From Escherichia coli (GTDB taxonomy: Bacteria > Pseudomonadota > Gammaproteobacteria > Enterobacterales > Enterobacteriaceae): a DNA stretch of 64,000 nt. The notes beneath the pieces were generated by a model. The model ran no database searches. It worked only from the letters and a program-made list of their open reading frames with translations, and was not told the DNA's origin. The stretch lies in NCBI RefSeq assembly GCF_050920415.1, contig NZ_CP169309.1. One strand, written 5' to 3'. The stretch's first letter is position 1. Every line of letters starts with the position of its first letter. The position numbers were made by a program, and so were the translations under genes. Of this stretch, positions 36,525-41,559 are shown one piece after another.

Positions 36525-37550
36525 TTAACGCACGGGCGGCGCGTACTGAATACCGCCGTTATTCCAGAGATTATTTTGCCCACGTTTAATCTTCAGGGGG
36601 CTTTCTGAACCTACGTTACGCTCAAAAATTTCCGAGTAATTACCCACCTGTTTGATGATGTTGTAAGCCCATTTATTATCCAGCTTCAGATCTTTACCGT
36701 AATCGCCCTCTTTACCCAGCAGATGCGCCATATCAGGCGTTGCAGGATTAGCCGCTTTTTCATCAACGTTTTGCGAATTAACGCCCATCTCTTCAGCATT
36801 CAGCATGGCGAAAAGCGTCCAGCGCACTATAGAGAACCATTCATCATCGCCACGACGAACTACCGGCCCAAGCGGTTCTTTAGAGATAACTTCCGGTAAA
36901 ACAATCCATTCAGCTGGGTTGCTTAATTTGATGCGCAGGGCATACAGTTGTGATTGATCCGAGGCCAGCGTATCGCAGCGGCCAGATTCCAGTGCCTTCG
37001 CGGATTCGTCAGAGCGATCGAAAGTCACTGGTGTGTACTTCATATTGTTTGCCTTGAAGTAATCGGCGACGTTGAGTTCGGTATCAGTACCCGCCTGAAT
37101 ACAGACTGTTGCGCCATCCAGTTCTTTCGCGCTTTTTAATCCCGCTTTATCGTGCGTCAGGAAACCAATGCCGTCATAATAAGTGACGCCAGTAAATGCC
37201 ATTCCCATACCGGCATCGCGAGAGGAAGTCCAGGTCGTATTACGGGAGAGCAAATCCACCTCCCCTGACTGTAAAGCCGTGAAGCGTTCTTTTGCAGTGA
37301 GCGGGGTATATTTCACTTTCGTGTCGTCACCAAATACAGCTGCCGCAACACCACGACAAACATCTACATCAATACCTGAAAACTTACCGTCAGCATCGGC
37401 ATAAGAGAACCCAGGTAATCCATCACTGATCCCGCATTGCACAAAACCTTTTTTCTGAACGGCATCAAGCGTCGCGCCAGCATGCGCCTGATTTGCAACG
37501 GCAAGCAGCACGCTGGCGGCAGCCAGTGTGGCTATCATCATCTTTTTCAT
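36525..37550 (-). CDS. yhdW: Periplasmic amino-acid-binding protein of ABC transporter (341 aa, signal peptide), intact
   Basis: ORF MKKMMIATLAAASVLLAVANQAHAGATLDAVQKKGFVQCG...; cleavable signal peptide; first gene of yhdWXYZ. Confidence 0.9.
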   Translation of the reverse strand: MKKMMIATLAAASVLLAVANQAHAGATLDAVQKKGFVQCGISDGLPGFSYADADGKFSGIDVDVCRGVAAAVFGDDTKVKYTPLTAKERFTALQSGEVDLLSRNTTWTSSRDAGMGMAFTGVTYYDGIGFLTHDKAGLKSAKELDGATVCIQAGTDTELNVADYFKANNMKYTPVTFDRSDESAKALESGRCDTLASDQSQLYALRIKLSNPAEWIVLPEVISKEPLGPVVRRGDDEWFSIVRWTLFAMLNAEEMGVNSQNVDEKAANPATPDMAHLLGKEGDYGKDLKLDNKWAYNIIKQVGNYSEIFERNVGSESPLKIKRGQNNLWNNGGIQYAPPVR

Positions 37551-37980
37551 AATGCTTCCTGTGAGGCGAAAATTATCGTTATAGGACGTTTGGGAAACGT
37601 CTTTTACCTGTCTGTGGCCATCCTCTTATAAGCAAAAGTAGTGCCAGCTTTTGCGCACGATTTCGCGTCGCAATAAGCTGAGTGTAGACAGGAAATAATA
37701 AAAACAGCGCCCCGCAATGGTGCGAAAATGAAACATGCGCCACATTTTGGCGCAAAATATTTACGCATTTTTTACTAAGCAGAATAATGATTGTTAGCGT
37801 GAGTATATTTCTGGTAGGAAGTGTGAAAATTAAATTGATGCGTTATTTCGAAAGCAGCGAAATAACGCGATATAACATGCTAAATCAGCAGGGAATTACC
37901 CAGCAGAATATAGCAATATTTTATCTTATGGAGAGATACTGTATCGTTAAACAGAGCGCGGTACTCCGCGCCCTGTTCAG

Positions 37981-38202
37981 TTATTTCGACAGAGCGATGA
38001 TCCCCATCGTCAGGCCAGCAACAGCTGCTGCCCCGCCAGCAATAGCCCCAGCCGTTTCCCAGTTATCCTGAGTCGTGCCTTTCATACAGGTATTGGTGTG
38101 AACCAGTCGACCCTGATCGTCATAAACCGGAACGCAGGGCGAATCGTGAGCACAGCCCGCCAGCAATGCGGTGAGCAATGCTACAGGAATTAATCTTTTC
38201 AT
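37981..38202 (-). CDS. yhdV: Small lipoprotein YhdV (73 aa)
   Basis: ORF MKRLIPVALLTALLAGCAHDSP... lipobox LAGC; Gly/Ala-rich C-terminal TM segment. Confidence 0.85.
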   Translation of the reverse strand: MKRLIPVALLTALLAGCAHDSPCVPVYDDQGRLVHTNTCMKGTTQDNWETAGAIAGGAAAVAGLTMGIIALSK

Positions 38203-38421
38203 GGTGTTACCTCAGTAATAAACGCTAACGCTTAATAAGTTAACTCTCTTATTAACGAGCTGAATGCCATTTTATCACTGGAGGTTATAAATCTTGCGGC
38301 ATGAATAATGACAAATTATGTGAATTGTAAAAATAGTGAAGGGAGCGGGAACTATAGAAAGTTTTTAAAGAGTGAGTAGAAGAATATCTTATTAATTTTT
38401 ATGGGTTTCACTGAAAATAAT

Positions 38422-38454: not shown

Positions 38455-41400
38455 TTATCCTTTAAAGCAACGGCGGATAACCACAAAGAACACCGGCACG
38501 AAGAAGATTGCCAGCAACGTTGCAGAGACCATCCCGCCCATTACCCCGATACCCACTGCGTTCTGCGCGCCACTGCCGGCACCGTTACTGATAGCTAGCG
38601 GTAATACGCCGAGAATAAAGGCGAGAGAGGTCATCAGGATAGGACGCAGACGCATACGTACTGCCACCAGTGTCGCTTCAACAACACCTTTACCCTCTTT
38701 CTCCATGAGATCTTTAGCGAACTCAACAATCAAAATAGCGTTTTTGGCCGACAAGCCAATTGTCGTTAGCAAGCCCACCATAAAGTAGACGTCATTTTTT
38801 TGATTAAAGAGTGTCGCCGCCAGTAGCACGCCGACAATCCCTAACGGCACGACTAACATAACCGAGACAGGAATTGACCAGCTTTCATAGAGTGCAGCAA
38901 GGCACAGGAAAACAACCACAAAGGAAATTGCTACCAGAGCGGGAGCTTGGTTGCCCGATAAGCGTTCCTGATATGACATACCCGTCCAGTCATAACCAAT
39001 GCCAGCTGGTAATTGTGATGCAAGGTTTTCCATCAACGCCATGGCATCGCCGGAACTGGTTCCTGGCGCGGCTTCCCCCTGAATCTCCATTGACGGCAGA
39101 CCGTTGTAGCGCTCCAGTCGCGGAGAGCCATACACCCAATGTGCAGTGGTAAAGGCAGAGAATGGCACCATTTCGCCGTTGGCGCTGCGGACATAAAGTT
39201 TATCGACATCTTCTGGCAGCATACGGAATTTGGCATCCGCCTGAACATACACCTTTTTCACGCGACCACGGTCAATGAAGTCGTTAACGTAAGTCCCACC
39301 CAACGCCGTTGAAATGGTCTGATTGATGTCAGAAAGTGAAACACCTAATGCCTGCGCCTTTTCCTGGTCAACTTCCAGTTTAAACTGCGCGGTGTCTTCC
39401 AGACCATTAGGACGCACGCTGACTAAGCTGGCAGGATGTTGCGCCGCCATGCCAAGCAACTGGTTACGGGCCTGGGTCAGGGCATCGTGACCCAGCCCAG
39501 CCTGATCAATTAACTCAAAGTCGAAACCCGTTGCCGTGCCCAGTTCAACAATGGCTGGCATATTGAATGGAATGACAAAACCGTCGCGGATCTTGCCCAA
39601 TTCCATTTTGGCACGATGGATTACCGCTTCCGCACTGTTTTCGTCACCACTACGCTCTTCCCACGGTTTCAGACTGACGAAAGCCATACCGGCGTTTTGT
39701 GCCTGGCCGCTGAAGCTAAAGCCGTTAACCGTAAAGACACTTTCTACGTTCGCTTTCTCGTTCTTCAGATAGTAATCCGTCACTTGATCCAACACTTTTT
39801 GCGTCCGCTCTTGCGTCGCGCCAGCGGGTAACTGAATCATAGTCAGAAAGACACCCTGATCCTCTTCAGGTAAGAAGGAAGACGGAAGACGTAAAAACAA
39901 CACCACCATTCCAGCAACAATTAGTGCATAGATCAGTAAATATCGTCCTGTGGAACCGAGGATTTTGCCGACGCTGTTGGTGTAGTGGTTAACGCTATGA
40001 TCGAAGGTGGTATTAAACCAGCCGAAGAAACCGCCCTTATTTTCGTGATGCTCAGCAGAGACGGGTTTGAGCAGTGTTGCACATAACGCTGGGGTAAGAA
40101 TCAATGCCACCAGAACAGAAAGCGCCATTGCCGAAACGATGGTGATAGAGAACTGGCGATAAATGGCCCCAGTAGAACCGCCGAAGAATGCCATCGGAAT
40201 AAATACCGCTGACAGCACCATCGCGATACCCACCAGTGCGCCCTGGATTTGCGACATTGATTTTTCCGTCGCTTCTTTTGGCGGGAGCTTATCCTCCATC
40301 ATCACGCGCTCGACGTTCTCCACCACCACTATCGCATCATCGACGAGCAGCCCGATGGCAAGCACCATCCCGAACATAGTTAGTGTATTGATGGAGTAAC
40401 CAAAAGCGGCGAGGATGGCAAACGTCCCTAACAACACCACGGGTACCGCAATGGTGGGGATCAGCGTTGCTCGCATATTCTGCAAGAACAGATACATCAC
40501 CAGGAACACCAGCATAATGGCTTCGAACAGCGTTTTTACCACTTCGTGAATAGAAAGCTGGACGAATGGTGTGGTGTCATAAGGGTAGAGAACCTTCATT
40601 CCCTGCGGGAAGAATGGCTGTAATTCCGCCAGTTTTGCCTTAATGGCTTTCGCGGTATCGAGAGCATTCGCGCCGGTTGCCAGCTTAATACCCAGGCCCG
40701 CCGCCGGTTTACCGTTGATGCGAGCGATAACGTTATAGTTTTCACCGCCAAGTTCAACCCGTGCGACATCTTTCAGGCGTACCACCGAGCCGTCACTGTT
40801 TACGCGCAGGGTCACTTTGCCGAATTCTTCCGGATTTTTTAACCGCGTCTGAGCAATAATCGAGGCGTTCAACTGTTGCCCTGGTAACGCTGGCGTTCCG
40901 CCCAACTGTCCGGCAGCGATCTGATCGTTCTGTACCTTCAACTGGTTAATCACATCAACCGGCGTCAGTTTATATTTGTTTAGCAGATCGGCGTCCAACC
41001 AGATACGCATCGCATACTGTGCGCCGAAAAGCTGTACATCACCGACGCCATTCAGACGGCTAAGCGTATCTTTAACGTTAGAGGCCACATAGTCCGAGAT
41101 ATCGTCCTGTGTGGTGCCTGGGTTATCAGAGACAAAGCCCGCCACCATCAAATAGCTGCTACTGGACTTTTCAACACTGATCCCCTGCTGCTGTACCTCC
41201 TGCGGCAGCAACGGCGTGGCGAGCTGGAGTTTGTTCTGCACCTGCACTTGCGCGATATCAGGATCGGTCCCGGACTGGAAGGTAAGGGTAATTGTCACGC
41301 TACCGGCGGAATCGCTGGTGGAGGACATATACATCAGGTTATCGATACCATTCATATTCTGTTCGATAACCTGCGTCACCGTATCCTGCACGGTCTGCGC

Positions 41401-41559
41401 ATCAGCGCCCGGATAGTTTGCCGAAACAGAAACCGCAGGCGGCGCAATGGTCGGGTACTGGGCGACGGGCAATTGTAGGATCGCCAGTGCGCCCGCCATC
41501 ATCAGAATAATGGCCAGCACCCATGCAAATATCGGTCGTCGAATAAAAAAGTTTGCCAT
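38455..41559 (-). CDS. acrF: RND multidrug efflux pump inner-membrane transporter AcrF (1034 aa)
   Basis: [70 protein letters not shown]...; adjacent acrE and divergent acrS distinguish it from acrB. Confidence 0.95.

Follow-up and report, generated by a model that had tools for sequence, protein, structure and literature searches.

Two inverted repeats in the yhdV-yhdW intergenic region of Escherichia coli: a probable NtrC site of the yhdW sigma-54 promoter and a separate repeat found in Escherichia

The two palindromes considered here are present upstream of yhdW, in the 430-bp intergenic region between yhdV and yhdW of E. coli, within a stretch of 64,000 nucleotides which was analyzed as a whole and is called the window. 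The genes around the palindromes are all on the minus strand, in the order acrF, yhdV, yhdW and then yhdX, yhdY and yhdZ. This gene context agrees with an earlier note on this DNA, which had placed the palindromes in the upstream region of a leftward transcribed yhdW, since yhdW and yhdV are both encoded on the minus strand. The genes referred to below are as follows.

38455-41559, minus strand: acrF
37981-38202, minus strand: yhdV, encoding a 73-aa lipoprotein
36525-37550, minus strand: yhdW, the regulated gene, encoding the substrate-binding protein of the YhdWXYZ amino-acid ABC transporter

The segment from 37400 to 38300 matches E. coli EC42405 at 100% identity and other E. coli at 98-99%, and the yhdV-yhdW spacer carries no RefSeq annotation either in this strain or in K-12 MG1655. 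The yhdW gene is intact here with 341 codons and is annotated as a frameshifted pseudogene in K-12 (MC1061 and MG1655; loci L002 and L096). According to the literature, the YhdWXYZ system has recently been tied to antibiotic homeostasis and gut colonisation, and a promoter map of yhdW is useful because of this link. The neighbouring yhdV is strongly acid-induced in the literature, its mRNA being up about 2^6-fold at pH 4.4.

Both perfect palindromes described in the earlier note are present in the sequence; the position given for the second one was exact, and the first one lies one base to the right of the reported 37735-37753.

37736-37754, no strand assigned: Pal1, a perfect 7-5-7 dyad TGCGCCA-cattt-TGGCGCA whose arms are NtrC-type half-sites
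37840-37868, no strand assigned: Pal2, a perfect 11-7-11 inverted repeat GCGTTATTTCG-aaagcag-CGAAATAACGC

The arms of Pal1 (37736-37742 and 37748-37754) are 7 nt long with a spacer of 5 nt, those of Pal2 (37840-37850 and 37858-37868) are 11 nt long with a spacer of 7 nt, and the complementarity is 100% in both. Inverted repeats with perfect arms and loops of 3-12 nt were counted in the window, and dinucleotide shuffles were used as the null. There are 58 repeats with arms of at least 7 nt against 33 +/- 6 in the shuffles, and 7 repeats with arms of at least 11 nt against 0.2 expected, of which the six other than Pal2 are classical bidirectional terminators having an A-run, a GC stem and a T-run. 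Repeats with 7-nt arms are common in the window, so Pal1 is unremarkable as a palindrome and it is its content and position which matter. Arms of 11 nt are rare by chance and the other six repeats are terminators, so Pal2 is statistically unusual and also atypical in kind.

The search for the pattern TGGCAC-N5-TTGCW with at most one mismatch gave a single match in the 64 kb, which is exact and is located at 37646..37631 on the minus strand.

37631-37646, minus strand: sigma-54 promoter TGGCACTACTTTTGCT, with -24/-12 elements matching the consensus exactly

This promoter has the GG of the -24 element and the GC of the -12 element of the sigma-54 consensus and is placed 81 bp upstream of the start codon of yhdW. 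With the GC placed at -12, transcription would start at 37620 with a leader of 70 nt; Pal1 lies 125 bp upstream of this predicted start and the centre of Pal2 at about -234 relative to it. Bonocora et al. 2015 have reported the same motif, with a 70-nt leader, under the sigma-54 ChIP-seq peak OS34 for yhdW, and a peak of RpoN holoenzyme in gSELEX corresponds to the same site. We collected 80 orthologous yhdW loci from Escherichia, Citrobacter, Enterobacter, Kosakonia, Cedecea, Atlantibacter and others, 79 of them with upstream DNA, and the motif TGGCAY-N5-TTGCT is present 91-115 bp before the ATG in all the 79. A second sigma-54 promoter at or around Pal1 was also considered by eye and rejected, as the spacing from TGGCGC to TTGC does not fit on either strand.

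For the regulator sites the published 17-bp NtrC box TGCACCAnnnTGGTGCA was used, which has a 3-nt spacer and the cores GCA and TGC. No match to this consensus with three mismatches or fewer was found in the searched DNA at this promoter, and the matches obtained, counted from the ATG of yhdW, are at -204 (10/14), at -202 in an overlapping register (9/14) and at -174 (10/14). Ten K-12 promoter regions bound by NtrC in vivo, with coordinates from Brown et al. 2014, served as reference, and their sites have 9-13 of 14 matches to the same consensus. A symmetrised PWM was built from 17 sites in these ten regions.

37738-37754, minus strand: NtrC box 1 TGCGCCAAAATGTGGCG, 3-nt spacer, 10/14 matches, 10.9 bits, centre at about -126
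37708-37724, minus strand: NtrC box 2 CGCACCATTGCGGGGCG, 10/14 matches, 11.2 bits, centre at about -96, 30 bp from box 1

Box 1, the promoter-distal member of the pair, takes up 17 of the 19 bases of Pal1. The reference sites score 9.1-20.9 bits, so the two boxes are at the low end of the range, and a score of at least 10 bits is reached at only 7 positions in the 64-kb window. At box position 14, where T is strongly conserved, both boxes have G, and in box 1 the conserved A at position 4 is absent in all 80 species. The arrangement is that of an enhancer, with two boxes 30 bp apart at about -126 and -96 upstream of an exact sigma-54 promoter. The arms of Pal1 read with the 5-nt spacer match the NtrC half-site consensus at 12/14, the spacing being non-canonical.

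Footprinting was done on an alignment of 190 bp around the promoter from 80 species, and four nearly invariant blocks were obtained. The block of box 1 reads TTTTGC.C....TGTGGC..A.GTT, the block of box 2 reads TTTyGCACC followed by A in 65/80 and then by ...C.G.GC, the third is a 13-nt block and the fourth comprises the sigma-54 elements. The two highest-scoring PWM matches per species cluster tightly at the positions of box 1 and box 2, the best score at these positions is at least 10 bits in 72/80 species, and the position of box 2 is the best match in most species. The NtrC sites are thus conserved in the orthologous promoters, and the catalogued yhdWp sites, weak as their consensus matches are, come out as real conserved elements across Enterobacteriaceae.

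The perfect dyad behaves differently from the boxes. All seven pairs of Pal1 are intact in 2/80 species only, the pair 37751:37739 is mismatched in 58/80 and the pair 37752:37738 in 34/80. Positions 37738 and 37737, which are needed by the 7-5-7 dyad, are variable across species, and T37744 and G37743, which fall in the spacer of the dyad and correspond to T11 and G12 of the canonical box, are invariant. Since the dyad is found in only 2/80 species, the perfect symmetry is a peculiarity of E. coli. By this pattern of conservation the functional unit is taken to be the box in its canonical register, and the exact palindrome would be a lineage-specific overlay in E. coli. Of the conservation of both palindromes, which the earlier note had proposed to check, the part which holds is that of the NtrC boxes across 80 species, and not that of the perfect Pal1 dyad or of Pal2, the latter being an Escherichia-only repeat.

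The third nearly invariant block sits between the NtrC boxes and the sigma-54 promoter.

37680-37692, minus strand: conserved block CCTGTCTACACTC, 1.3-1.8 bits per position in 80 species, at about -60 to -72 from the predicted start

This block may be the site of a bending protein. One IHF-like match with 2 mismatches was found between enhancer and promoter, ACTCAGCTTATTG at 37683..37671 on the minus strand, and it overlaps the block.

The boxes were further compared with catalogued NtrC sites. Table S1 of Aquino et al. 2017 gives EcoCyc NtrC sites for yhdWXYZ at 3416898 and 3416868 (NC_000913.2). The centre of the sigma-54 motif of Bonocora et al. was used as the coordinate anchor, and with it the box centres map to exactly 3416868 (box 1) and 3416898 (box 2); as a control, the same mapping reproduces the EcoCyc glnA sites 4056270 and 4056238. 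The offset of the anchor differs by 1 bp between the loci, so the choice between the canonical register and the centre of the dyad, which is 1 bp off, is good to +/-1 bp, and the canonical register gives a consistent assignment for the one box as for the other. The EcoCyc sites of yhdWXYZ may have been assigned computationally.

As evidence in vivo, Aquino et al. 2017 have their own NtrC ChIP-seq peak at 3416958 with a coverage of 66, and Brown et al. 2014 have an independent NtrC ChIP-seq peak at yhdWXYZ with 16-fold enrichment; the table of the latter also cites expression evidence for yhdWXYZ, and their supplement makes no mention of yhdW. The peak of Brown et al. is about 46 bp downstream of the sigma-54 motif and their glnA peak is displaced alike. 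The summits of the two studies are 60-150 bp downstream of the boxes, which counts against the NtrC reading. Unlike other Ntr-regulon enhancers, the yhdW site was not recovered by gSELEX with NtrC alone, the yhdW spacer not being among the 93 targets in the available portions of that main text and supplement. The match of the EcoCyc centre together with the two independent ChIP-seq peaks makes Pal1, in 17 of its 19 bases, identical in extent to a known NtrC site. Pal1 is therefore an already known, database-listed NtrC site of a known sigma-54 promoter, and no new kind of element.

On this evidence Pal1 is probably the core of the promoter-distal NtrC (GlnG) site for the sigma-54 promoter of yhdWXYZ, and Pal2 is probably a separate element, most likely without conserved regulatory function. 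The present analysis itself shows the promoter and the two boxes with their geometry and conservation, and the occupancy by NtrC and sigma-54 in vivo and the nitrogen control of the operon are taken from the literature. Under nitrogen limitation, phosphorylated NtrC would occupy the two boxes at about -126 (inside Pal1) and -96, would oligomerise and, by looping of the DNA, would contact the closed complex of sigma-54 holoenzyme at TGGCAC-N5-TTGCT, where its use of ATP would drive promoter opening. For yhdWp, looping and ATPase activity are proposed by analogy with glnAp2. The earlier note had proposed an operator of a dimeric regulator and had listed NtrC among the regulators for comparison; the dimeric regulator and NtrC are retained here, and the site is an enhancer (upstream activating site) rather than a repressor operator. 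The suggested comparison with known motifs gave two NtrC boxes of 10/14 each which are listed in EcoCyc, the perfect dyad not being the conserved feature.

The layout is shared with the Ntr sigma-54 promoters glnAp2, glnHp2, astCp2, glnKp and rutAp, which have the same -24/-12 elements and two NtrC boxes about 30 bp apart. The boxes of yhdW and of Ntr-regulon enhancers are alike in being roughly 100-130 bp upstream of the start and in having TGCACCA-type half-sites, and NtrC and sigma-54 occupy the yhdW promoter in vivo as they do other Ntr-regulon promoters. At glnA the boxes lie at -140 and -108, a distance of 32 bp as compared with 30 bp at yhdW, and the arm variants of Pal1 (G4 and C14 of the box) recur exactly in the astC site TGCGTCAGAATGGCGCA. 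The differences are that the yhdW boxes are weak, with 10/14 matches and G14 in each against 12-13/14 at glnA, glnH and hisJ, and that in E. coli the distal box is overlaid by a perfect dyad with 2 bp more between its half-sites than in the canonical arrangement. In a reporter study yhdWp was among the weakest of twelve sigma-54 promoters, its perfect core elements notwithstanding, and this low activity is at least compatible with weak activator sites. The conserved form of the boxes is asymmetric with G at position 14 in both, which could interest those who model the strength of NtrC sites and may have a bearing on the low reported activity despite the perfect -24/-12 elements. The significance of these results beyond annotation is small.

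Pal2 was surveyed in E. coli genomes by a 45-bp query, which was found in 5355/5426 genomes with a median of 1 place per genome and a maximum of 2. A REP-like element, which the earlier note had offered as one possibility, has to be dropped because Pal2 is single-copy, at one place per genome in the 5355 genomes; a dispersed repeat or MITE was rejected on the same ground, the 61-bp enhancer segment with Pal1 being likewise single-copy per chromosome. This 61-bp segment occurs at one chromosomal place per genome, apart from which 25 weak plasmid matches of 80-90% identity were found, and it is 100% identical in 4142/5355 genomes; the 45 bp of Pal2, although the shorter sequence, are identical in just 2938/5355. 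At the equivalent place of the non-Escherichia loci, inverted repeats with arms of 8 nt or more are absent throughout, whereas the yhdV terminator hairpin is there in nearly all of these loci.

Within the genus some form of the repeat is present in all four Escherichia lineages examined, in which the downstream arm TCGAAATAAC is kept and the upstream arm and the spacing differ, the overall length being about 23, 22, 22 and 20 nt. A tandem near-duplication GTTATATCGC/GTTATTTCGC is seen at 37857-37876 on the minus strand, and its second copy forms the upstream arm of Pal2 in E. coli; in Escherichia lineages L003 and L004 it is single-copy and in L005 there is a different duplication. Among six E. 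coli strains the arm positions 37858, 37867 and 37868 are variable, in one arm only and uncompensated. The variable spacing argues against the operator of a dimer and the uncompensated arm changes argue against a selected stem. Judging from these comparisons, Pal2 is most likely neutral, a by-product of local duplication with no evidence of constraint; it may still be functional, in view of its 11-nt arms, which by chance would be about 35-fold rarer, and its persistence in all four Escherichia lineages.

The transcript end of yhdV has to be considered together with Pal2.

37950-37977, minus strand: yhdV terminator hairpin directly after the yhdV stop codon, -24.1 kcal/mol, z-score -7.8

In most genera yhdV is followed by a hairpin, usually AAAAGCGCGG...CCGCGCTTTT and a distinct T-run, and in E. 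coli the terminator ends with CTCTGTTTAACG, a short T-run in which most of the T-run of other genera is lost. Pal2 could on this account be an accessory RNA hairpin in the 3' region of yhdV, serving as a back-up terminator or a 3'-end stabiliser which offsets the short T-run, a reading that we consider rather unlikely. On the minus strand the Pal2 RNA folds at -13.9 kcal/mol with a z-score of -3.2 and is followed by AUCAAUUUAAUUUUC, the variation of loop length between lineages would be tolerable for a hairpin, and the strong acid induction of yhdV is relevant to such a role; the terminator scan nevertheless fails on Pal2, as the first 8 nt behind its stem contain fewer than 5 T, and the strain SNPs are uncompensated, 2/3 of them giving A-C mismatches on the minus-strand RNA. 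At most, Pal2 would act as an accessory hairpin in transcripts reading past the yhdV terminator. For the structured RNA also suggested in the earlier note, no support was found in Rfam and only the modest folding z-score of Pal2 speaks for it: over 37400-38300 the best Rfam match is MicA, which at 22.2 bits (E = 0.75) stays below the gathering score of 41, and this MicA-like match at 37732-37811, being at chance level, was rejected as a known RNA family.

A sigma-70-like promoter TTTTCA-16-TATACT was noticed at 37802-37829 on the minus strand, some 175 bp before the sigma-54 start. A block ATAyTCACGC which is recurrent in many genera contains the -10 hexamer of this promoter. From its sequence and position this site could be a second, NtrC-independent promoter of yhdW, as in the glnAp1/glnAp2 layout.

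Pal2 adjoins this site, and its dyad centre is at about -60 from the presumed start of the sigma-70-like promoter, which raises the reading of Pal2 as the operator of a dimeric factor, either ROK-type (NagC/Mlc-like) or LysR-type, for the adjoining downstream promoter. The perfect 11-bp dyad against 0.2 expected by chance favours it, as does the core TTATTTCG-N7-CGAAATAA, which spans 23 bp as NagC/Mlc operators do. The 23-bp TTATTT...AAATAA shape is presumably like that of NagC/Mlc operators, and Pal2 resembles these ROK operators in being a 23-bp AT-rich quasi-palindrome with TTATTT/AAATAA arms. The T-runs of Pal2, however, are 2 bp too far apart for them. The only invariant positions of NagC/Mlc operators are TT/AA at +/-5,6 (PMC4288165), and Pal2, taken as centred on 37854, carries T,C at -6,-5 with G,A at +5,+6, so the rule does not hold and a NagC/Mlc operator was rejected. 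The distance between the arms, moreover, differs among Escherichia lineages, and such variation would be incompatible with a dimer. None of the other genera has the repeat, although they keep the promoter-like block, the SNPs of O157:H7 and other strains affect one arm only, and no regulator gene divergent to Pal2 is present nearby. The generic motif of LysR-type regulators is T-N11-A, and neither this nor other consensus motifs that were considered fit Pal2 well by eye. The operator reading of Pal2 is thus quite improbable, and the suggestion of the earlier note to this effect was not borne out, given the absence outside Escherichia, the arm spacing that varies by lineage and the one-armed SNPs without compensation.

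Pal1 itself can be read as an RNA hairpin or intrinsic terminator, UGUUUCAUUUU following its 7-bp stem on the minus strand, which would shield yhdW from transcription coming from yhdV or from a sigma-70-type promoter. The earlier note had stated that neither palindrome has a T-run in a useful orientation, and this does not quite hold for Pal1, where TGTTTCATTT comes next on the minus strand, from which both flanking genes are read, and where a simple pattern scan flags the element as terminator-like on that strand. A hairpin energy of -11.6 kcal/mol, the sigma-70-like site upstream of it (37829..37802) and the induction of yhdV at pH 4.4 are consistent with such a role. The folding z-score of Pal1, on the other hand, is just -1.3 and 20/200 shuffles fold as well. 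Its stem is mismatched in most species as described above, the element is conserved as sequence and not as structure, and the T-rich stretch behind the stem belongs to the conserved flank of NtrC box 2. Intrinsic terminators are like Pal1 and Pal2 in being minus-strand stem-loops with T-rich sequence after them; the stems of these two, in comparison with the yhdV terminator, are short or AT-rich (-11.6 and -13.9 against -24.1 kcal/mol), Pal2 is without a proximal T-run, and, unlike in intrinsic terminators, neither stem is conserved across species. The combination of a stem conserved as structure with a T-run is accordingly found in neither Pal1 nor Pal2. We regard the terminator-like look of Pal1 as incidental, and the terminator reading as very improbable.

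It has further to be weighed whether the 7-5-7 dyad of Pal1 is the operator of some other dimeric regulator, or an alternative NtrC register which competes with or modulates the canonical binding in E. coli. With the 5-nt spacer Pal1 reaches 12/14 and a half-site sum of 16.3 bits, which is above either canonical register, nothing else in 11 NtrC-target regions reaches 11/14 with this spacing, and a Lrp ChIP signal at yhdW has been reported in the literature. Yet all the strong NtrC reference sites have the 3-nt spacer and the published box is 17 bp long, the right-arm positions 37738 and 37737 of the wide dyad vary while T37744 and G37743 of its would-be spacer do not, the centre of the catalogued NtrC site fits the canonical register, and no candidate second regulator for Pal1 is known. 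This reading is highly improbable. The compound view, in which the wide dyad of E. coli marks a distinct binding mode (an alternative NtrC register or a competing factor) and Pal2 is a lineage-specific operator or hairpin coupling yhdW to the acid-induced yhdV transcript or to the upstream sigma-70 promoter, deserves very little credence.

Some minor features of the spacer were also recorded. A Nac box was looked for, and the pattern ATA-N9-TAT present at 37910-37924 (ATAGCAATATTTTAT) was rejected because the window holds about as many such matches as chance would give (11, with 9 expected). The -24 element is flanked by two short dyads on the minus strand, TTGCG...CGCAA at 37650-37675 and GCAAAAG/CTTTTGC at 37632-37654, and the motifs TTGCG and CGCAAA near this element recur in other genera with variable spacing; these short dyads may be low-affinity NtrC half-sites or coincidence. 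In the 5' UTR of yhdW, at 37580-37606 on the minus strand, there is a hairpin GACGTTT-CCC-AAACGTC (sense orientation), which is kept in other genera with changes on both sides of the stem (GGCGTTT/GGACGCC; GGCTCC/GGAAGCC). The conserved stretch ATAACGATAAnTTTCGCCACACAGGA comes after this hairpin, just before the start codon of yhdW, and from their sequence the two together may constitute a post-transcriptional control element.
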